DNA of 64,000 bases from Candidatus Nomurabacteria bacterium (GCA_963842815.1 CAWJHU010000001.1:264708-328707), one strand, 5' to 3'; shown: positions 699-37,322, counted from the stretch's first letter. The notes: generated by a model from the letters alone, not told the origin. A program made the numbers and translations.

Positions 699-882
699 AC
701 AGCTATTTTAACACAAATTACCCATATCAAAAAGACAGATTATTATTTTATACTGCACGGATATTTTTTTGCTAAAAAATTCCTCGTGCTCGCGCCGTCG
801 CGCTCCCAAGGCAGTCTTAAACAACAATCTGTCTTTTTTAAAATTTGTATTTTTGCTTGCATTTTTATTTGTCCTATATATA

Positions 883-1716
883 ATGGACAGCATGTTAGGG
901 GAAAATAAAAACCTAAAAGACACCTCTAAAGATTCCATAAAAGACACTTCTTCTGCCTCCACTTCTTTGACTATGCCTTGGCGAGACCAAGCAGGGTATT
1001 TTAATAAAATAAACAAACTCATTACTGCCCTCTACATAGTAACAGACACGATGGAAAAAGATGAGCCACTGCGTCTAAAGTTAAGGACATTTGGAGTTGA
1101 AATTCTATCAGACATTGCTTCCTTGCCCAAAGGGACATTTGGCAACCTTGATGAAAAAATTACTGCAATTTTGTCCCTTTTGAATATTGCTTTTGACGTT
1201 AGAATGGTCTCTGAAATGAACTTCAATATCCTCAAAAAAGAGTTTTTGGAAATGAAGCAATCTATCCAAGAATTCACTAAACGCAATAATGCTTGGCTGG
1301 AAGAGTTCATAAATACTTCCTCTCCTTTTCAGGGGAAGACTGAGGAGGGGTTCTTGAAAAATTCACCTCACCCCAACCCTCTCCTGATAAAGGAGAGGGG
1401 GCAAGAAATTTCTAAAGGACAGGGTACCAGAATCGGTGTCCAAAAGGGAAGTACTTTAATGAAAGCTTTAAACAAGGTTGAAAGTGGAAATAACAATTTT
1501 GAAATAATAAAGAAGCAAAGAAGAGAATCAATAATAAAAATCATAAAAAATAAACCTATCGGCGCAAGCATAAAGGACATCATTCTTGCCGTTAGAAATC
1601 TCGGAGAAGAGATGGGAGAGAAAACCCTTCAAAGGGAGCTTGTCTCTATGGTAAAGGACAATGTCCTTAAGAAAACCGGAGAGAAACGTTGGTCTCTATA
1701 TTTTATAAATAGTTAG
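883..1716 (+). CDS. hypothetical protein with C-terminal winged-helix-like segment; carries an in-frame REP-A palindrome (alternative upstream start at 769)
   Basis: ORF 769..1716 in the track. ATG at 883 lies directly after TATATAAT; the C-terminus (GASIKDIILAVRNLGEEMGEKTLQRELVSMVKDNVLKKTGEKRWSLYFI) looks like a wHTH. Residues NSPHPNPLLIKERGQ are encoded by the palindromic repeat at 1366-1401. Confidence 0.4.
   Translation: MDSMLGENKNLKDTSKDSIKDTSSASTSLTMPWRDQAGYFNKINKLITALYIVTDTMEKDEPLRLKLRTFGVEILSDIASLPKGTFGNLDEKITAILSLLNIAFDVRMVSEMNFNILKKEFLEMKQSIQEFTKRNNAWLEEFINTSSPFQGKTEEGFLKNSPHPNPLLIKERGQEISKGQGTRIGVQKGSTLMKALNKVESGNNNFEIIKKQRRESIIKIIKNKPIGASIKDIILAVRNLGEEMGEKTLQRELVSMVKDNVLKKTGEKRWSLYFINS
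1366..1401. repeat. REP-A nested palindrome copy (CCTCACCC..CCCTCTCC-loop-GGAGAGGG), in-frame inside CDS 883..1716
   Basis: cacctcaccccaaccctctcctgataaaggagaggggg shares its core with copies at 5871, 6010, 6591 and 21676. Confidence 0.6.
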
Positions 1717-2098
1717 GGCCTAAATTATTTATTTTAAAAACCGCGCATATTTGCCTGTTGGCAAATTGCTATGCTCGGCTACCCGCCTGCGCAATGCTTT
1801 TTAAAACAAACAATTTAGGCCCTATAAAAGCACCTTTTTGGGCCGTTTCCCCGTATACTCTTAAAGAGCCCGAATGACATAGTTTTTTATATTTGCATTT
1901 TAACTAAAATTATGTAAAAATAGGCTTATGGATACATGGCTTTTTAAAGCCTAATTTCGTCAAGAAAAACGAGCTTGCTCCTTTTGGGCGAGTTATCCAC
2001 ATAATATGTTGCTCTTCCTTAGAGCTATATATTATAATGTTTGAGTGATTACAGGTTATGCACTGAGAAGTGTGTTCTGTATTCGCAAATTGTATTTG

Positions 2099-2140
2099 TT
2101 TTCGTTCACGATTACATCGAAATAATCGTGAACGAAAACA
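2099..2140. repeat. 16-bp perfect inverted repeat hairpin (TTTTCGTTCACGATTA / TAATCGTGAACGAAAA, 8-nt loop) in a 640-bp intergenic region
   Basis: Read directly from the sequence at 2099-2140, upstream of the large surface-protein gene; candidate regulatory or ncRNA structure. Confidence 0.4.
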
Positions 2141-2356
2141 ACCAATCAAAGGTCGCAATTTTTGATTGGCTAAGGGCATGGTCATTGAAAATAAAATAGT
2201 TTTTTGTTTTCAATGTATTAGTTTAAATCTGTTCATTGTTTGATGTCCGTCGCATTATTAATTGTTTTAATTATAAGTTATAGGCGGATAAAAAATAATG
2301 ATAGAAAAATACGCTTTTAGTTTTGTCGAAACTAATTAATGGCGTAGAAAAAAAAT

Positions 2357-5300
2357 ATGAGTAAATTATTAAAAACAAAATTTCTTCTTGGAATTGCGAT
2401 ATTCGCACTTGCTGCTGTTGTAACAACTTCAGCTAATGCCGCTATCACTTCCACATTGAAGAAAGGAATGAGAAGCGCTCAAGTCACAGAACTTCAGAAA
2501 GACTTGAACGTAACTCCAGCTACAGGTTACTTTGGTAATCTTACGTTAGCTGCAGTCAAGGCTTTTCAATCAGCTCACGGTTTAACCGCTGATGGAATCT
2601 TTGGCGCAAAGTCTCGTGCGGTATTATCAGGTGGTACAGTTTCAACTACGTTTCCGGCAGGTTGCACGTCAACCGCAGGATTCAGTTCTCTAACTGGCAC
2701 TCCATGCAATGGCAGCACGAGCACTGTAGTTTCAAATCCTACAGGTCCTCTATCAGTGCAATTAGCTTCTGACAACCCAGCTTCCGGAGTGTTGGTCGGA
2801 GGTCAAGCAACAGGAGACTTGATGCATTTTACTTTCAGCGGTTCTGGAACAATCAACAACATTACACTTCAACGCACAGGTATTACAGCAAACACTGCTC
2901 TTACAAATGTATACCTTTACAATGGAGCATCTCGCATTACAGACTCAGCTTCTGTTAATACGAACGGTGTGATTAGTTTCAACGGTGTCAATTTCCCAGT
3001 AAATGGTTCAGCAGTTATTTCTGTCAAAGCTGATATTGATTCCACCTTGACTGGCGGAACAGTCGGCGTAGCTCTTACTGGTTACACAGTAGCCGGTTCA
3101 ACTAGCGCTACAGTAGCAAATATCTCTGGTAACTTAATGAGCATTACTACAGGAACAAATATCCTCGGTAGTGTTAATTTTTCCACGATAGCTGGCACTA
3201 CTCCTGCTGTTAATGCCGGAGTTTCCCAATATATTCTTTGGACTGATTCAGTACAAGTTAGTACTCACTCCGTCTTAGTGAAGAGCGCGTCTTTCCACTT
3301 TGTCGGTTCAGCTCCAACTGATTCATTGGCAAATGTTGGACTCTTTATTGATGGATCTAAAGTCGCATCTTCAACCGGTATAAATTCACTCGGTTATGTG
3401 GTGTTTGACTTAAGTTCAGTTCCATTCAGTCTAGCGACTGGTTCGCACACAGTGGATGTTCGAGGTGATATCATTAAAGGTTCTTACAGAAGCATTCAAC
3501 TCACTTTGCAGAATGCCGGTGACTTCATGGCTACCGATTCTCAAATTGGCGTAAACATTGCTTCCAAATACAACAACTTGGCGTTTGCCCCAGCTGCTGG
3601 CCCAGCCATCAGTGTCAATCAGGGAACGCTTTCTTTCCAACTTGATCCTACCTTCACTACCATGACAAATGTCACAGGTGGCGCAACCAATGCTTTGATT
3701 GGTAAATACACAGTCTCAGCTTACGGGGAAGATATGAAGATTCAGACTATTGTGCTTACTCCTACCCTTGCTGGTACGGACAATACAAGCGCAAGAAGCA
3801 TAAATAATGTTCAGCTCTTCTACAACGGTTCACAAGTTGGTTCAGCTCAGAGTTATGTATCTACAGCTCTTACCTTTAACCTTGGATCTTCCTTTATTGT
3901 TCCAGCCGGAACAGTTGGCACATTTGAGGTTCATGCGGATATGATAGATGCAGGTGGTGACAATTACATTACTGATACGATTCAAGTCACTTCAGCATCT
4001 GTCACAGTTGCTCAAGGTATGAATTCACTTCAGACGACTACTGCAGCTATCCCTGATTCTACAATCTTGACTGCTGTAACAGGAACACTTTCTGTTGCCG
4101 CAAACAGTGGATATACAGCACAGTCATTCAATCCAAACACAGCTAATGCGAAGATTGCATCATTTGTTCTTCAAAATCAGACTTCTTCTGAGTCAGTTCG
4201 TGTTACGAACTTGAAGATAGGAGTAACTGAAACAGATGCAACTTCCACAAACCTTACAAACTTGAAGACATCTGAAACATCCGGTTCAGGAGCAACTCCA
4301 ATCGCTCTTGCCACAGCAGCTTCTACTGTTGAATCAGTAAACAACTTCTCAGTTGACTTTACTCTTGCACCAGGTGCAACTAAAGTAGTTGATGTGTTTG
4401 CTGATATCGGTGCTGATGTTGCTAATACCATAGCTACCCGTTTATCGGTTACAGCTCGTGGAGCAAGTTCAAATGTTAGTGCTGATCAAAACGATAAAGC
4501 AGGACAAGCCATTACTGTCGCTACTGGAACATTCGCAAACGCAGGAGTAGTTATCTCTTCTACCTCACAACCACAACTCGTGGCTGCTGGTAGTACAGGT
4601 GCTACTGATGCTACAGTTGCAACATACAACTTCAAGTCAGCAAGCGGTTCAGCAACCGTTTCTGAACTTAAGTTCTTGATTACGACCACAGGTGCTCATC
4701 TTTCCGTATCTTCAGTTCGTGTCGGTTCAGTTAGCGCTCCTGTCGTATCAAATATTGCTTACTTGACTAGTCTTAACATCGCAGTTCCAAATGGAGGCTC
4801 CGGTGTTAATGTCCCTGTCTACTTCACTTATGGTCCTGTAGGTACAAACGGAAACACTTCCGGTGATACATCCGAAGTTGAAATGACATACATTAAATAC
4901 ACAGTTGGTGGAACAACTGGTACATTAGTAGGTGGTAGTGCAACTGCAGGGGCAACAGCCGCTGCTACTGGCACTTTGCTTGCAACAGCAACCGCAGGAA
5001 CATTGCCTGCACTTCTCGCAACGGCAGCCGATATTACTGTTAGTTCAAATGCATTATTGCAACCGGGTATGAGGGTTATCGTTTATAACTCTTCCGTCTC
5101 TGCTACTATTCCTGATTCTATCGCTGAAGTTCAATCGCTTTCAGGCACAGCACATGTAAATCTTGTAAGCTTGAAATTAGGTACAGCTGCTCTTGGTGCT
5201 ACATCTACTCTTAACTTCTTCTCAGTACCTATGAACCCAACTTATCCATCTGTTTCAGGTGGAGTTGCTACAGTTGGAAATGGTAAGAGTCGCGATATGG

Positions 5301-5857
5301 CTGGAATTACGGTATTAGGTGGTTCTACTTCTGGTCTTGCTGCTATGCAAATAGTAGGTTCTAAGCCATCTTTGGCAGTCATTGATGCAACCACTTTGCT
5401 TACCAATGGTTTGGTAAAAGTCGGTTCAGTTTCAGTTGCCGCGGATCCTAAGGGTGATATCTCAGTAAGTGCGATTCCTCTTCTCTTCGCTTCAACTGGA
5501 AATGTAGCATCTACTTTGGCAAATGATGGAACGATTGTAGTAAAGAATGCTGCTGATAACAGTACTATTTCTACATCGATTACCGATATCCATGTCTTAA
5601 CAGGAGGGCTAACCGATGGTACCGCAACAGTCAACTTTACTGGTGGTTACACAGTAACCGCTGGCAACACTGTTACCTTTGATATCTATGTCAATACGAC
5701 TGGTGTCACAGGCGGTCCTAGCGCAAATGCTCTATCAATGAAGCTTGGTACAAACACTTCATTCGTATGGACAGATATTGCTGGAAGTGCTACAAGCACA
5801 ACCACAGGTAAACTTATCTACAACTACCCAACCAACTCTTCAGTCATTAACGACTAA
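2357..5857 (+). CDS. large secreted surface protein: signal peptide, N-terminal peptidoglycan-binding (PG_binding_1-like) domain, Cys-bounded loop motif, then ~1000 aa Thr/Ser/Gly/Ala-rich repetitive beta-rich region
   Basis: 1166-aa ORF with N-terminal hydrophobic leader. LKKGMRSAQVTELQKDLNVTPATGYFGNLTLAAVKAFQSAHGLTADGIFGAKS matches the PG-binding fold; GCTSTAGFSSLTGTPC motif follows; then low-complexity repetitive sequence. Confidence 0.65.
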   Translation: MSKLLKTKFLLGIAIFALAAVVTTSANAAITSTLKKGMRSAQVTELQKDLNVTPATGYFGNLTLAAVKAFQSAHGLTADGIFGAKSRAVLSGGTVSTTFPAGCTSTAGFSSLTGTPCNGSTSTVVSNPTGPLSVQLASDNPASGVLVGGQATGDLMHFTFSGSGTINNITLQRTGITANTALTNVYLYNGASRITDSASVNTNGVISFNGVNFPVNGSAVISVKADIDSTLTGGTVGVALTGYTVAGSTSATVANISGNLMSITTGTNILGSVNFSTIAGTTPAVNAGVSQYILWTDSVQVSTHSVLVKSASFHFVGSAPTDSLANVGLFIDGSKVASSTGINSLGYVVFDLSSVPFSLATGSHTVDVRGDIIKGSYRSIQLTLQNAGDFMATDSQIGVNIASKYNNLAFAPAAGPAISVNQGTLSFQLDPTFTTMTNVTGGATNALIGKYTVSAYGEDMKIQTIVLTPTLAGTDNTSARSINNVQLFYNGSQVGSAQSYVSTALTFNLGSSFIVPAGTVGTFEVHADMIDAGGDNYITDTIQVTSASVTVAQGMNSLQTTTAAIPDSTILTAVTGTLSVAANSGYTAQSFNPNTANAKIASFVLQNQTSSESVRVTNLKIGVTETDATSTNLTNLKTSETSGSGATPIALATAASTVESVNNFSVDFTLAPGATKVVDVFADIGADVANTIATRLSVTARGASSNVSADQNDKAGQAITVATGTFANAGVVISSTSQPQLVAAGSTGATDATVATYNFKSASGSATVSELKFLITTTGAHLSVSSVRVGSVSAPVVSNIAYLTSLNIAVPNGGSGVNVPVYFTYGPVGTNGNTSGDTSEVEMTYIKYTVGGTTGTLVGGSATAGATAAATGTLLATATAGTLPALLATAADITVSSNALLQPGMRVIVYNSSVSATIPDSIAEVQSLSGTAHVNLVSLKLGTAALGATSTLNFFSVPMNPTYPSVSGGVATVGNGKSRDMAGITVLGGSTSGLAAMQIVGSKPSLAVIDATTLLTNGLVKVGSVSVAADPKGDISVSAIPLLFASTGNVASTLANDGTIVVKNAADNSTISTSITDIHVLTGGLTDGTATVNFTGGYTVTAGNTVTFDIYVNTTGVTGGPSANALSMKLGTNTSFVWTDIAGSATSTTTGKLIYNYPTNSSVIND

Positions 5858-5870
5858 CAAGTTAGATTTA

Positions 5871-5915
5871 CCTCTCCCAACCCTCTCCTTATTAAGGAGA
5901 GGGCGAAGGGTGAGG
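5871..5915. repeat. REP-A nested palindrome copy
   Basis: cctctcccaaccctctccttattaaggagagggcgaagggtgagg lies immediately downstream of the stop of the 2357..5857 gene. Confidence 0.6.
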
Positions 5916-5980
5916 TCGGGAGTTTAGAATCTTAGTAAATAAATAGCATTAAGTAGTCGATTACTTAAAGCACAAAAAAA

Positions 5981-6006
5981 ACCACCCTTCGGGGTGGTTT
6001 TTTTGT
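5981..6006 (+). terminator. Rho-independent terminator (ACCACCC-TTCG-GGGTGGT + T-run)
   Basis: GC-rich 7-bp stem with a TTCG loop followed by ten T-rich bases. Confidence 0.7.
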
Positions 6007-6009
6007 TTG

Positions 6010-6074
6010 CCTCACCCGGCATTCTGCCACCCTCTCCATTTTAATAAAACGGAGAGGGGAAAAGGGGGGTGAGG
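6010..6074. repeat. REP-A nested palindrome copy (full form: CCTCACCC...CCCTCTCC A/T-loop GGAGAGGG...GGGTGAGG)
   Basis: cctcacccggcattctgccaccctctccattttaataaaacggagaggggaaaaggggggtgagg. Confidence 0.6.
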
Positions 6075-6181
6075 TATATTTTCGGGGAAAGGTCTTGCCT
6101 TAAAGAGAGCCCAAAGGCAAGTCCTTGAGGAGAAAATGAGTTAATTTGCGTTTTTTATTTGTGTTATGATATACTTTAAAT

Positions 6182-6397
6182 ATGGTTAAACATAATTTTA
6201 CAGCTGTATACAAAAAAAGTGGAAAATGGTTTTTAGGTTGGGTAGAAGAAATTCCTGGCGTTAATACTCAAGGAAAAACCCTAAAAGAAACAAAAGCAAA
6301 TTTACTTGAAGCAACCAAATTAATCATTGAAACAAATCGTTCTATAAATACCAAGCAAAGGAACCTTATAAAAGAACCTTTGATTTTCGCTTTTTAA
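6182..6397 (+). CDS. hicB: HicB-family antitoxin (UPF0150-type N-terminal domain only)
   Basis: 71 aa; FTAVYKKSGKWFLGWVEEIPGVNTQGKTLKETKANLLEATKLIIE matches the HicB/UPF0150 pattern (Y.A...E..GGy.a.vPdlPGc.TqGdTleEa..nl.eAi). A HicA-like gene follows after a 4-bp gap. Confidence 0.6.
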   Translation: MVKHNFTAVYKKSGKWFLGWVEEIPGVNTQGKTLKETKANLLEATKLIIETNRSINTKQRNLIKEPLIFAF

Positions 6398-6401
6398 GAG
6401 T

Positions 6402-6587
6402 ATGAAAAGAATTGATTTTTTAAAATTCATAACCAAACAGGGTTGTGTTTTTCTTCGTCAAGGGGCTAAGCATAGTGTTTATTTTAACCCTATGACAAAC
6501 AGGTCTTCAACAATACCAAGACACAACGAAATTGATAATTTTCTCGTCAAAAAAATCAGCAATGATTTAGGAATACCCAAACCATAG
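6402..6587 (+). CDS. hicA: HicA-family mRNA-interferase toxin
   Basis: 61 aa; ...FLKFITKQGCVFLRQGAKHSVYFNP...STIPRHNEID...ISNDLGIP matches the HicA/YcfA pattern (l..l.k.Gw.lvRqkGSHh.f.hp...g..tvP.H...). Confidence 0.6.
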   Translation: MKRIDFLKFITKQGCVFLRQGAKHSVYFNPMTNRSSTIPRHNEIDNFLVKKISNDLGIPKP

Positions 6588-6590
6588 AAT

Positions 6591-6637
6591 CCCCCTCCTT
6601 TACCACCCCCAACCCCCTCCTTAATTAAGGAGGGAAG
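6591..6637. repeat. REP-A variant palindrome (CCCCCTCC-TTAATTAA-GGAGGG)
   Basis: ccccctcctttaccacccccaaccccctccttaattaaggagggaag lies directly after the hicA stop. Confidence 0.5.
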
Positions 6638-10810: not shown

Positions 10811-10899
10811 ATAATTTTTCCCCTGACCCAGGGTCAGGGGAAGAGAGGTTTTCCACAGAAATTGTTGGGATTGGAATGTTTTTAGAATATAATTAGAGA

Positions 10900-19877: not shown

Positions 19878-20222
19878 GAGGATTCGTGAACTTCATAGAG
19901 GAAAAGTTTTTTTTTGTTCTTTGTTTTTATTTTCTTGCTCGGGTAGCTCAAGCGGTGGAGCATTGGATTTTCTTTATAGTCCAAAGGTTGTGGGTTCAAG
20001 TCCCATCCCGGGTACGAAAAGAGGCCATCAGCGATTGGTCTCTTGCTAGATAGATATTGAGAAACTACTATGTCAATTTGATTGAAGCGCAAATAGAACT
20101 TCATGATTTTGATATAGGCAGGTGAGATCCCTGCTCTAGCACTAATTTATTGGCAAACTTTTTTAAAAATTTAATTTTAAAAAAGTTTGCCTCTTCTATG
20201 AAGTTCACGAATGGTAGGAGAG
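19878..20222 (+). other. intervening sequence / expansion in 23S helix 45 (~345 nt) closed by a 20-bp stem; contains a tRNA-like segment and a perfect 40-bp AT-rich hairpin
   Basis: Insertion follows ACCGAATT, where E. coli has the short helix 45. attcgtgaacttcatagagg (19883-19902) pairs with cctcttctatgaagttcacgaat (20194-20216). Internal gggtagctcaagcggtggagca...ggttcaagtccca at 19936-20010 resembles tRNA D- and T-arms. ggcaaacttttttaaaaatttaattttaaaaaagtttgcc spans 20146-20187. Confidence 0.5.
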
Positions 20223-21630: not shown

Positions 21631-21970
21631 TTAGAACCTCACTCGCCCTAACGGATCTTCTCCATGAAATTTCAAGGAGAGGGCTGGGGTGAGGGTTAAA
21701 CAGTTTGAACCCTCAGAGGAAGAAAATTTATTACGAAATTAGAACTGTTATAAATTGAAATCAATCATTGCTAAGTTTTAGCAATCACGGCGGCGCTTTG
21801 TAGAAATACAAAGTGAGCAAGCTAACTTATATCGGAGAAACCCAATTCGCGAAAGCGAAGGACAACGCCGAGGGAAGAGTTATTTACTCACCCGTAGAGA
21901 CTGAATGTTAGCAATCTCGCAATAGATTAATGTCACAGTCCAATCCCATAAGTAATTATGGACGTAGATG
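21631..21970 (+). ncRNA. ORF-less group-I-like intron in 23S rRNA at the position homologous to E. coli ~2593 (I-CreI/I-CeuI homing-site region)
   Basis: Exon sequence GGGTTCAGACCGT | CGTGAGACAGGTTGG is interrupted by 340 nt. The 5' exon ends in T and the insert ends in G (omega-G). Candidate P7 pairing GAGACTG/CAGTCC and a GCGAAAGC GNRA hairpin are present. No ORF of 60 aa or more lies inside. Confidence 0.55.
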
Positions 21971-36595: not shown

Positions 36596-37316
36596 CTACG
36601 GAGGCGTTGCCTCCGTAGCCGTCTCCGTGGATGAATTATTCGTCGTTAAAACTTAGCCATTCAAACAGCTCTTTTTTATAATCAGTCAGTTTTTTAAAAT
36701 AAGCGGGAAATTCTGATGGATTTATAATTTTAAATTTTCCATCTTTGTATTCTTCCATGCTTGAATATGGATATTCAAAAACATATTGTAAAAGTTTCGT
36801 TAAAGGTTTGTTTCTTTCTTCTTTCCAATTTTTGTCTATCAATTTAGCGGGATTTAAATGTATATAGGAATATATGTATTTTAAATATCTATCGTTGTTT
36901 ATGTGGATTGATTTAAATACTCCTTCATATAATTTGCCTGTTCGTTCATATTTTTTATTGAAATACATTGAATAACTAGTCATTAATTTATGTATGTATT
37001 TAGAAATTCCATTTTCTGTCTTTTCACGAACAAGAATATGAAAATGATTTGGCATTAAGCAATATGCTCCTATATTAACTATAGTTTTTCCACGATCAAA
37101 ATTTTTGCCAATATTTCTTAACTCTATACTTTTTGTTGTATTACAAATATGCATTAAAAACAAAAAGTGCTCATAATCTTTTTTATCTATAAAAATAACC
37201 CTTTTTTCCGTTCCACGATTATATAAATGATAATACTCGTTTGGAGCGAAAGATTGTTTTCTTAAGGCCATTTGTTGATTATAACAAAAGGGGACTACGG
37301 AGGCAACGCCTCCGTG
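36596..37316 (-). mobile_element. REP-RAYT unit 2: second Y1 (RAYT-like) transposase gene bracketed by REP-C palindromes (ACGGAGGC-GTT/AAC-GCCTCCGT) and by an imperfect ~25-bp direct repeat of the adjacent gene terminus
   Basis: CTACGGAGGCGTTGCCTCCGTAG at 36596-36618 and CTACGGAGGCAACGCCTCCGTG at 37295-37316. ttaggaagttggagttgttgttgtaac (36571-36597) matches ttaagaggtcggagttgttgttgtagt (37325-37351) at 22 of 25 positions. Confidence 0.6.
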
Positions 37317-37322
37317 TCTCAT
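36636..37322 (-). CDS. REP-associated tyrosine transposase (RAYT), IS200/IS605 Y1 family, paralogue of 10106..10810 (likely true start MALRKQ at 37271; the first 17 codons of the track ORF are encoded by the REP-C palindrome)
   Basis: NEYYHLYNRG, HUH motif CLMPNHFHILV, Tyr region YIHLNPAKL; the Tyr-rich C-terminal tail resembles RAYT1. Confidence 0.7.
   Translation of the reverse strand: MRHGGVASVVPFCYNQQMALRKQSFAPNEYYHLYNRGTEKRVIFIDKKDYEHFLFLMHICNTTKSIELRNIGKNFDRGKTIVNIGAYCLMPNHFHILVREKTENGISKYIHKLMTSYSMYFNKKYERTGKLYEGVFKSIHINNDRYLKYIYSYIHLNPAKLIDKNWKEERNKPLTKLLQYVFEYPYSSMEEYKDGKFKIINPSEFPAYFKKLTDYKKELFEWLSFNDE

Follow-up and report, generated by a model that had tools for sequence, protein, structure and literature searches.

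Here we describe a family of short dispersed repeats, REP-A, in a 64,000-nt stretch of DNA (the window) from a Candidatus Nomurabacteria bacterium. The window contains a conserved protein gene, a gene for a 1166-aa product, the toxin–antitoxin pair hicBA and a 23S rRNA gene with a group I intron, and the repeats lie in or beside all of these. A preliminary description placed them at 1366, 5871, 6010, 6591 and 21676, and all five exist at these coordinates (0 of 100 shuffles by chance). The unit is composed of a pyrimidine arm (CCCTCTCC), an A/T-rich loop, a purine arm (GGAGAGGG), a spacer and a third block, also purine (GGGTGAGG), which reads as the purine arm in mirror image. The spacer is usually 3 nt long and sometimes contains a mini-hairpin. 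The third block can occur on either strand, and its presence on both gives the repeat its nested-palindrome look; two units can also pair as an inverted doublet. The defining form is therefore not the two-layer palindrome originally proposed but an asymmetric three-block unit, a hairpin plus a mirror purine block. In all five window copies, a single strand carries the three blocks, with the pyrimidine arm first, then the purine arm and then the second purine block.

Copy 1 (1366–1399, plus strand; CCTCACCC-CAA-CCCTCTCC-TGATAAA-GGAGAGGG) has a third block on the left only and lacks a right outer arm. With a degenerate left half (1318–1350, plus strand; TCCTCTCC-TTTTCA-GGGGAAGA-CT-GAGGAGGGG) it makes up an inverted doublet, of which it is itself the right half, in a layout that matches an intact doublet at 10815–10892 of the related locus L162. 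Sub-threshold long-hairpin matches cover 1313–1404. Both halves lie not in a spacer but inside a real gene (769–1716, plus strand), which encodes a conserved Patescibacteria protein with 1135 homologues (P0001 is 100% identical). A structure model and a fold search give this protein a four-helix bundle at the N terminus and, beyond a disordered linker, a winged helix (wHTH) at the C terminus. The degenerate half is in frame in the linker, and copy 1 is translated there as NSPHPNPLLIKER, a stretch with pLDDT below 50 in the AlphaFold model; the linker varies in length in the alignment of homologues. In relatives, the wHTH gene contains 33 pyrimidine/purine hairpins in total, spread over 24 of 80 loci, and the same linker holds different subfamilies in different lineages.

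As initially reported, copy 2, a terminator and copy 3 lie in the spacer (5858–6181) that separates hicB from the 1166-aa gene. Copy 2 (5871–5915, plus strand; CCTCTCCC-AA-CCCTCTCC-TTATTAA-GGAGAGGG-CGAA-GGGTGAGG) is double-sided and begins 14 nt past the stop codon of the 1166-aa gene. The bidirectional intrinsic terminator (5975–6004; AAAAAAACCACCC-TTCG-GGGTGGTTTTTTT) lies outside the repeat and recurs in relatives, with an element directly after it in L124, L125 and the window, and about 40 nt downstream of it in L194. Copy 3 (6010–6074, plus strand; CCTCACCC-GGCATTCTGCCA-CCCTCTCC-(13-nt loop)-GGAGAGGG-GAAAAGGG-GGGTGAGG) is also double-sided, with a mini-hairpin in its left spacer. The hicB and hicA genes follow on the plus strand (6182–6397 and 6402–6587, together 6182–6587); HicA matches Pfam HicA_toxin and HicB matches Pfam UPF0150-like at 24.1 bits, below the 27.3 cut-off. 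Copy 4 (6591–6634, plus strand) starts directly after hicA, 4 nt past its stop codon, and the toxin–antitoxin pair is indeed bracketed, with copy 3 before it and copy 4 after it. Previously listed as a variant, copy 4 is intact and belongs to a sister subfamily; it has an extra CCCCCTCC followed by ACCACCCCC (the third block)-AA-CCCCCTCCTT-AATT-AAGGAGGG, and its minus-strand mirror block GGGTGGTA scores 8/8. The ACCACCCCC-AA-CCCCCTCCTT-AATT-AAGGAGGG form is also present in L125, L147 and L188, and members of the subfamily occur in L124, L125, L130, L147 and L151.

Copy 5 (21637–21694, plus strand; CCTCACTC...TCTTCTCC-(12-nt loop)-GGAGAGGG-CTG-GGGTGAGG), formerly regarded as a half-copy, is a complete double-sided element; although its left half (CCTCACTC...TCTTCTCC) has decayed, this half retains its pairing with the right arm by way of two G-U pairs. 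In the group I intron (21631–21970, plus strand; boundaries inferred from the exon alignment), the distal part of the P1 hairpin consists of this copy. Alignment to the LSU rRNA (23S) model gives a 344-nt insert, whose match to Intron_gpI falls short of the gathering score (29.3 bits, E = 1.5e-5). In 57 related introns, a plain A/T hairpin of 26–34 nt sits where copy 5 is found.

Matches to CCCTCTCC-N(3–20)-GGAGAGGG occur in the window at 1377–1399, 5881–5903 and 6030–6058, and there are none in shuffles. The outer block, CCTCACCC or GGGTGAGG, was observed five times (at 1366, 5908, 6010, 6067 and 21687), against 0.8 expected. Copies 2, 3 and 5 fold far better than shuffled sequences (z = −4.5, −4.9 and −3.8, respectively), whereas the effect is weaker for copies 1 and 4 (z = −1.95 and −2.3). 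With the third block antiparallel to the purine arm, the triads of the purine motif (G.G-C, A.A-T and T.A-T) account for 8/8 positions in copies 1–4; for copy 5 (GGAGAGGG-CTG-GGGTGAGG), the fit was judged by eye. The second spacer is CAA in copy 1, CTG in copy 5, 2 and 4 nt in copy 2, and 8 and 12 nt in copy 3, and the hairpin loops of copies 1, 2, 3 and 5 span 7–13 nt. Many loops are themselves palindromic (TTAnTAA), and hairpin and loop then make up an almost perfect 23-bp palindrome.

To survey relatives, we used 1.39 Mb of related Nomurabacteria/Paceibacteria DNA in 80 loci, which with the window make 81 sources. REP-A is a genuine dispersed family rather than a set of five unique sites, with about 75–87 copies in the 80 Patescibacteria loci as well as copies in viral contigs. 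Of 175 pyrimidine/purine hairpins in the 1.39 Mb, 151 (86%) have a mirror third block matching at 7/8 or better, compared with 0.9% at random positions. Among asymmetric arms, we found 109 perfect mirror matches and 5 perfect direct-repeat matches, distributed over at least eight subfamilies. With the canonical arm excluded, mirror matches outnumber direct matches by 46 to 0 in the Patescibacteria loci and, among the matches listed, by 21 to 3 in viral loci. The conserved feature is thus the relation between three blocks and not one particular sequence. The spacer has a mode of 3 nt (84 of 172 third-block sides). Opposite a duplex A, the third strand has A in 167 cases and T in 148; the purine motif accepts either base, and the pyrimidine motif bars T. 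Judged by these comparisons, the mirror covariation fits a purine-motif DNA triplex, and neither a G-quadruplex nor a REP/RAYT site.

Comparison with homologous sites shows copies 2, 3 and 5 to be insertions. The syntenic loci L159, L166 and L125 lack copies 2 and 3, and against these loci copy 3 stands out as a clean 65-nt insertion/deletion difference, with no duplication of the target site visible in this comparison of distant species. The short hairpin in the 57 related introns and the translation of copy 1 in a disordered linker likewise mark copies as insertions. Copies thus vary in presence at syntenic sites, and REP-A is a repeat family and not a conserved functional RNA. An Rfam search with the repeats gave only sub-threshold hairpin-type matches and no family at or above the gathering score. 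Copies have also multiplied inside Nomurabacteria/Paceibacteria genomes: among copies with the same arm, the loop is identical in 39% of within-locus pairs and 7.9% of between-locus pairs. The distribution is patchy, with at least one copy in 47 of the 81 sources and 16 in one of them. Intergenic DNA contains 0.51 copies per kb and predicted coding DNA 0.072, a split that is approximate since genes in the related loci were called heuristically as long ORFs. An association with gene 3′ ends is borne out in the related loci, the nearest gene end being 3′ for 58 copies and 5′ for 30, at a median distance of 19.5 nt from the stop codon. Copies persist at the sites of least harm, which are those just past stop codons or terminators, disordered linkers in which the copy stays in frame, and a hairpin at the periphery of an intron. 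The analysis of the REP-A copies revealed neither a copying mechanism nor a target-site duplication nor an enzyme associated with them.

We consider the REP-A sites to be small, non-coding, non-autonomous dispersed repeats of the BoxC/PIT/TMECO class ('intrastrand triplex motif'), with a probability of roughly 0.6. This triplex motif is known from E. coli, Enterobacter and cyanobacteria (Holder et al. 2015, PMC4666352), and that article cites earlier descriptions of BoxC/PIT by Bachellier and by Hoyne/Maher. The two sets share block order and core letters (CCCTCTCC / GGAGAGGG / GGGTGAGG; PMC4666352 Table 1), a second spacer of 3 nt (the mode in the Patescibacteria relatives and the length in copies 1 and 5, whereas copies 2 and 3 depart from it), inverted doublets (14–29 nt apart here and 16–27 nt in E. 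coli, from the Table 1 coordinates), occurrence in both orientations, locally variable DNA nearby and the absence of an associated mobile-element gene. They differ in that blocks here are 8 nt instead of 9, and A/T-rich loops are 7–13 nt, instead of 3–6 nt, in every window copy except copy 4. Further differences are spacers that bear mini-hairpins, third blocks on both sides of one hairpin, the Patescibacteria setting at 38–40% GC, and an in-frame copy in a gene plus a copy in a group I intron, whereas the E. coli K-12 motif is reported to be always intergenic. The strict TMECO pattern (CCCTCNCCC-N3–6-GGGNGAGGG-N3-GGGNGAGGG) has no match in the window or the 80 Patescibacteria loci and, among the matches listed, at least 76 in viral loci; a relaxed pattern has 5 matches in the window and 37 in related loci. 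The core motif also occurs, among the matches listed, in viral contigs of 35–73% GC. REP-A is a class already described yet still unexplained, and not a new REP family.

REP/REPIN-type elements, in which a Y1 (HUH) transposase acts in trans on the hairpin as its recognition site and the flanking block serves as guide or cleavage site, would account for several of these features. Like REP, BIME and REPIN sequences, REP-A is short, palindromic and dispersed, lies mostly downstream of genes as singlets and inverted doublets, the latter resembling REPINs, and has undergone copying within genomes and lineage-specific expansion. The window even contains a RAYT-like Y1_Tnp gene (36636–37322). However, a different palindrome (CTACGGAGGC..GCCTCCGTAG) lies on either side of this gene, the sole Y1 transposase gene of the window. 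REP-A has no conserved GTAG-like tetranucleotide at the hairpin foot and, within the window, no repeat-flanked cognate RAYT, and a scan of about 50 window ORFs found no other transposase. One sequence-specific enzyme would not explain the coexistence of at least eight subfamilies with one architecture, several of them per locus (for example, in L125), and recognition by a protein gives no reason to expect the third block to covary as a mirror. We regard such a REP/RAYT assignment as unlikely. The same doubt applies to RNA-level cis elements, that is, 3′-UTR hairpins that stabilize transcripts or insulate neighbouring genes and are selected for function rather than selfish. Many copies do begin 4–20 nt past a stop codon and occupy the entire spacer, copy 2 lies between stop codon and terminator, and the decayed copy 5 retains its RNA pairing. 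Yet a hairpin alone needs no third block, which 86% of them nevertheless have, with mirror covariation; copies occur in both orientations in tandem gene contexts, in coding sequence and after terminators (copy 3), and syntenic relatives do without them. An intrinsic-terminator scan reports 5975–6004 alone and scores none of the repeats, and the E. coli motif had neither promoter nor terminator activity in earlier work.

A switch between G-quadruplex and hairpin, in which two purine blocks supply four G-tracts (the Doluca and Kaplan model, bioRxiv 10.1101/032615), seems improbable here. The E. coli versions (GGGAGAGGGTTAGGGTGAGGG) are a textbook G3N3 x4 motif, and 156 of the 172 third-block sides have four tracts of at least G2. 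By contrast, four tracts of at least G3 are found in only 3 of the 172, which means that these genomes have not conserved a three-tetrad quadruplex, and a quadruplex needs neither a same-strand pyrimidine arm nor the mirror symmetry that prevails here. Integron-like recombination sites that mobilize toxin–antitoxin and other small cassettes are more improbable still, despite the bracketing of hicBA, the similar bracketing of AbiEii and HEPN/MNT toxin–antitoxin modules in L133 and a cassette-like array in L125 (terminator, element, promoter, small gene). A hicBA pair occupies this site in L159 as well, and the low identity between its proteins and those of the window (HicB 35%, HicA 31%) makes a cassette swap possible. 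However, the L159 pair has no repeats, which are thus not needed for a toxin–antitoxin pair at that site. No integrase or recombinase lies nearby, attC-like core sites are absent, and most copies adjoin ordinary genes or sit in a housekeeping-type gene or intron.

Other selfish or structured DNAs offer partial parallels. Rickettsia palindromic elements (RPE) are reportedly selfish palindromic repeats that survive in frame in protein genes and in RNA genes, as REP-A does in a protein gene and within an RNA gene. RPE are about 100–150 bp long and lineage-restricted, and do not have pyrimidine/purine arms with a mirror block. Double-sided REP-A resembles MITEs such as the Correia element in its 8-bp terminal inverted repeats (CCTCACCC/GGGTGAGG) and its behaviour as a discrete indel of about 45–65 nt, but it is much shorter and without a visible target-site duplication, and terminal inverted repeats are missing from the single-sided form. 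With H-DNA and homopurine mirror repeats, REP-A shares the mirror symmetry of its purines and the triad rules of reverse-Hoogsteen pairing. H-DNA, however, arises from duplex DNA and needs no same-strand pyrimidine arm, whereas REP-A has all three blocks on the same strand, an arrangement that points to the folding of a single strand.

Such a fold could arise when the G-rich strand becomes single-stranded during replication or in a transcription bubble, the hairpin and third block then folding together, probably into a purine-motif reverse-Hoogsteen triple helix with G.G-C, A.A-T and T.A-T triads. The triple helix may stall polymerases and promote indels and recombination at the site, an effect that would accord with the variable hicBA/cassette region around it. 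At the RNA level, the hairpin alone would form, possibly as a 3′-end stabilizer. For the E. coli motif, the triplex was seen in vitro only; in vivo DMS footprinting and CD/NMR of the duplex were negative, and the earlier work that found no promoter or terminator effect found none on in vivo replication either. Copies 1 and 5 also speak against a triplex, being transcribed while RNA does not form purine-motif triplexes, as does the near-perfect 23-bp palindrome, to which a dimeric protein could bind. We propose only tentatively, from the third-block covariation seen over many independent subfamilies, in Patescibacteria as well as unrelated viral contigs, that an intramolecular DNA triplex, or a factor that reads the mirror, may be under selection in living cells.

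The setting is a candidate-phyla-radiation (Patescibacteria) genome, in which the sites lie after genes, in frame in a gene and in a self-splicing intron. If this proposal is true, the repeats would constitute a pan-bacterial class of structure-defined mobile DNA that colonizes protein linkers and ribozyme loops.

All five REP-A sites were recovered in the window, four in the first 6.7 kb (copies 1–4; 1366–1399, 5871–5915, 6010–6074 and 6591–6634) and one in the 23S rRNA gene, within its group I intron (copy 5; 21637–21694). Three matches to the inner hairpin, CCCTCTCC-loop-GGAGAGGG, were found (1377, 5881 and 6030) versus none in 100 shuffles, and five to the outer word CCTCACCC or its complement versus 0.8 expected, which bears out the sites of the preliminary description; the inner-hairpin scan with one mismatch also found the variant at 6591 and the copy in the intron. 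Fold z-scores of copies 2, 3 and 5 range from -3.8 to -4.9. The C-rich side lies on the + strand in all five copies (G-rich strand of copies 2–4, for example: 5'-CCCTCTCCTTATTAAGGAGAGGGCGAAGGGTGAGG-3').

Each unit is composed of a pyrimidine arm, a loop, a purine arm, a spacer and a third purine block that mirrors the purine arm. Copies 2, 3 and 5 look like nested palindromes because the third block flanks one hairpin on both sides, which gives the two-layer palindrome originally described. A scan of viral contigs with the pattern CCTCACCC-N3-CCCTCTCC-N(3-20)-GGAGAGGG returned at least 120 loci (GC 35–73%), and among the matches listed the unit is asymmetric, a hairpin with one flanking block and the other side usually empty.

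We obtained 80 related Nomurabacteria/Paceibacterota loci (L121–L200; 1.33 Mb, 38% GC) via alignment of the winged-helix (wHTH) protein whose gene hosts copy 1. They hold 75–87 canonical three-block elements, in both orientations; with the viral loci, this makes REP-A a dispersed family and not five unique sites. A sequence-blind search of the 80 loci and the window for perfect pyrimidine/purine hairpins, 8 bp or longer, returned 175. A mirror block lies 1–9 nt from the purine arm, on one or both strands, in 151 of these (86%). A match here means G to G, and either A or T to A, at no fewer than 7 of 8 positions, a score that 0.9% of random positions reach. The canonical arm cannot tell a mirror from a direct repeat because it is itself nearly mirror-symmetric. 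Among asymmetric arms, perfect mirrors number 109 versus 5 perfect direct repeats, and with the canonical arm excluded the Patescibacteria loci give 46 versus 0 and the viral loci 21 versus 3. The mirror relation holds in at least eight subfamilies (purine arm/third block): GGAGAGGG/GGGTGAGG; AGGAGGGGG/GGGGGTGGT, the type of copy 4; GGGGGAGG/GGAGGGGG; AGGGGAGG/GGAGGGGT; GGGGAGGA/AGGAGGGG; AGGGGGAG/GAGGGGGT; AGGAGGAG/GAGGTGGT, with the third block after a hairpin spacer; and GGAGAGGA/AGGTGAGG.

The mirror block has no Watson–Crick partner within the three-block unit, and the only structure we know of that uses such a block is a third strand antiparallel to the purine arm. The third-block base facing a duplex A is A in 167 cases and T in 148, and the purine motif permits both (PMC4666352). 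A pyrimidine-motif triplex, which RNA could form, was rejected, as half of the bases facing A in the third block are wrong for it (T). Because all three blocks are on one strand, the arrangement points to a probable single-strand fold and not to H-DNA. Four G3+ tracts are present in 3/172 cases only, so that a three-tetrad G-quadruplex is not the conserved feature. This covariation, in which the third block changes with the arms so as to mirror them, favours a triplex over both the G-quadruplex and the REP readings. The G-rich strand would thus form a hairpin plus third strand, and this single-strand DNA fold is the best-supported mechanism, suggested by the covariation together with published in vitro work. 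Oligonucleotides would allow a direct test of the covariation argument for a triplex.

BoxC/PIT/TMECO repeats have been known since the 1990s; to our knowledge, neither their function nor the mechanism by which they spread has been established. A full-text search with two G-rich words linked REP-A to this class through Holder et al. 2015 (PMC4666352), in which the E. coli motif is 5'-CCCTCNCCC-N3-6-GGGNGAGGG-N3-GGGNGAGGG-3' (CCCTCTCCCTGTGGGAGAGGGCCGGGGTGAGGGC is an example from their Table 1). On the opposite strand, the copies in the window read as this motif, and the family represents a variant of the class in Patescibacteria. The purine-motif triplex of TMECO is stable in vitro, its signal is absent in duplex DNA and by in vivo footprinting, and no promoter or terminator activity is reported for TMECO; in E. 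coli K-12 the elements are strictly intergenic and include five inverted pairs, and local variability between strains is raised around them (PMC4666352). The same paired arrangement is seen at copy 1, which belongs to an inverted doublet as its right half, the left one (1318–1350) having decayed; the doublet is intact in L162 (10815–10892). By contrast with TMECO, the window blocks are 8 nt long, copies 1, 2, 3 and 5 have A/T-rich loops of 7–13 nt (N3-6 in TMECO), spacers may contain a mini-hairpin (GGCATTCTGCC in copy 3), and copies 2, 3 and 5 have their two-sided third block. The strict published pattern has no match in the window or the 80 related loci, and 76 in the viral loci. The published screen admitted hairpin loops of up to 6 nt only (PMC4666352) and is older than most genomes of the group, and would for these reasons have missed most of the copies described here. 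Literature searches on the motif in candidate phyla radiation genomes and on later BoxC/TMECO work yielded nothing beyond Holder et al. 2015 and a Doluca/Kaplan preprint.

A new REP/RAYT family, in which a Y1 transposase would mobilise the palindromes, was also considered. The window does encode a RAYT-like Y1_Tnp protein (36636–37322, - strand; Pfam E = 9e-9, NCBIfam REP_Tyr_transpos below cut-off). However, this gene has its own palindrome on both sides, CTACGGAGGC-N3-GCCTCCGTAG (also written CTACGGAGGC-N3-GCCTCCGT(A/G)G; 36596–36618 and 37294–37317), a classic REP/RAYT arrangement unrelated to REP-A. REP-A belongs to the BoxC/PIT/TMECO class and is not a new REP/RAYT family. Pfam scans of the ~50 window ORFs found no further transposase or integrase, and the earlier statement that no transposase accompanies REP-A in the window stands, the lone Y1_Tnp gene being flanked by a different palindrome. 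The repeats were rejected as terminators by a terminator scan and as a known RNA family by comparison with Rfam, and an integron attC reading was rejected because neither core sites nor an integrase were found. Another palindrome family, TTCCCCTGACCC(W)GGGTCAGGGGAA, occupies eight sites between 9457 and 30412, mostly 3' of genes, and is not of the pyrimidine/purine type.

Same-arm pairs have an identical loop in 39% of cases within a locus versus 7.9% between loci. Copies are missing altogether from 34 of 81 sources (the 80 loci and the window), and L125 has 16. Such loop sharing and patchy counts are the pattern that lineage-specific copying would leave. With ORFs called heuristically, hairpins number 0.51 per kb of intergenic DNA and 0.072 per kb of predicted coding DNA. 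For 58 copies the closest gene end is a 3' end, and for 30 it is a 5' end (median 19.5 nt from the stop codon), in agreement with the association with gene 3' ends raised earlier; between co-directional genes, elements are found in both orientations.

Three sets of comparisons bear on whether the copies are insertions. The spacer 3' of the large surface-protein gene can be aligned between the window, L159, L166 and L125 by a common box, AGTCGATTA, and the same terminator, with a hairpin, GGTCTTGCC...GGCAAGWCC, downstream of these in the window, L159 and L166. L159, L166 and L125 all lack copy 3, as a clean block of 65 nt, and copy 2 as well. For copy 5, 57 contigs from a metagenome scan share the intron's 5' exon and internal guide sequence (GGTTCAGACCGT...CAGTTTGAACC), and in these the P1 distal hairpin is 26–34 nt long and A/T-rich (for example, TTAGAAATTAATCACAGATTGATTTTTAAA), the scan design excluding element-bearing introns; the same position in the window reads TTAGAA[58-nt element]GTTAAA. 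Copy 1 encodes NSPHPNPLLIKER in a linker of the wHTH protein that varies in length in the protein alignment and is modelled as disordered (pLDDT <50). Other subfamilies occupy the same linker or the disordered N-terminus in other lineages, and 33 hairpins lie within the wHTH gene in 24 of the 80 loci, at 5–8% and 41–61% of gene length. These comparisons indicate that the copies are insertions, with boundaries and target duplications judged across species only, because no near-identical relative was found (best wHTH-protein homologue, 67% identity).

The wHTH gene (ORF 769–1716) has 1135 homologues, one of them 100% identical, and all named ones are from Patescibacteria (Nomurabacteria/Paceibacterota); the protein matches no Pfam or NCBIfam family. 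Its predicted N-terminal four-helix bundle weakly resembles the 'S23 ribosomal protein family' structures 2gsc/2rld (target-normalised TM-score ~0.75, E ~0.01), and its C-terminus is modelled as a Fur/ArsR-like winged helix. The gene is always divergent from ftsK. Triplex-type elements in L121–L200 reach 0.50 per kb in this gene and 0.27–0.34 per kb in its 1-kb flanks, with 0–0.2 per kb (about 0.1) further away, and 47% of all hairpins lie within this ~2.8-kb zone, which is thus a hotspot for them. The wHTH protein was set aside as a binding or mobilising factor: flank density is within ~2-fold of the general intergenic density, the in-gene copies lie exactly in the two disordered segments, several subfamilies coexist and the fold is generic.

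Gene order in this part of the window (40% GC overall) is ftsK (on the minus strand and extending past the left edge), wHTH, ~640 nt of conserved non-coding DNA, a 1166-aa PG_binding surface protein, hicB–hicA and an 862-aa surface protein. The ~640-nt gap is strongly conserved at the nucleotide level (window 1990–2356 and equivalents in L125 and L159), and comprises a promoter-like TTGC...TATATTATAAT and a conserved leader of ~130 nt. A 60-nt segment just 5' of the surface-protein start is 100% conserved and encodes a 13-aa upstream ORF (MIEKYAFSFVETN). The gap, which has no Rfam match, is likely to be a regulatory leader. The window also holds 5S rRNA, tRNAs and a 23S rRNA of 3608 nt with two inserts. 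The second insert (~310 nt, approximately 19895–20205) falls in the region of helix 45 (position ~1218 of the LSU rRNA model) and contains a well-scoring tRNA-like structure at 19937–20015 (Rfam tRNA, 55 bits), which ARAGORN calls tRNA-Glu(ttc), its anticodon region being enlarged. It is unusual for a tRNA to lie inside a 23S intervening sequence.

The toxin–antitoxin pair (hicB 6182–6397, hicA 6402–6587) is indeed bracketed. Copy 2 lies 14 nt 3' of the stop codon of the 1166-aa gene and is followed by an intrinsic terminator (5975–6004), copy 3 and the hicB promoter region; copy 4 lies 4 nt 3' of the hicA stop codon. AbiEii and HEPN/nucleotidyltransferase (MNT) toxin–antitoxin modules in L133 (11800–14830) are likewise bracketed, and in L125 a terminator, an element, a promoter and a small gene stand in a row. 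In L159 the hicBA pair at the corresponding site is free of elements. HicB is 69% identical between L125 and L159, and window and L159 are 35% (HicB) and 31% (HicA) identical. From the bracketed modules, the element-free hicBA and this divergence, the hicBA site is therefore a variable cassette spot in which the repeats are frequent residents; as suggested before, they are plausibly recombinogenic.

Several further features were noted around these cassettes. The L133 modules are separated by three-block elements and doublets, with the ~54-nt doublet centre repeated at 94% identity. A near-identical bidirectional terminator, AAAAAACCACCC-(TTCG)-GGGTGGTTTTTT, is present in the window (5982–5997) and at ~18 sites in L124–L197; a three-block element lies directly 3' of it in L124, L125 and the window, and ~40 nt downstream in L194. 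Between terminator and next promoter, a hairpin, TTCGGGRAAGGTCTTGCCTTAARGRGAGYCC(A)AAGGCAAGWCCTTGAGGAGAAAAT, is conserved in the window (6087–6140), L159 (14744–14796) and L166 (14712–14765), and the gene that follows differs (hicBA in the window and L159, a hydrophobic ORF in L166).

The material provides clean comparisons of filled and empty sites for repeats of the BoxC/PIT/TMECO class. For annotation, these repeats give spurious-looking peptide segments, such as that encoded by copy 1, inside a real protein. The elements tolerate being translated as part of a disordered linker as well as lying in the hairpin of a group I intron, and the class now extends to the Patescibacteria, an ultra-small, low-GC lineage.
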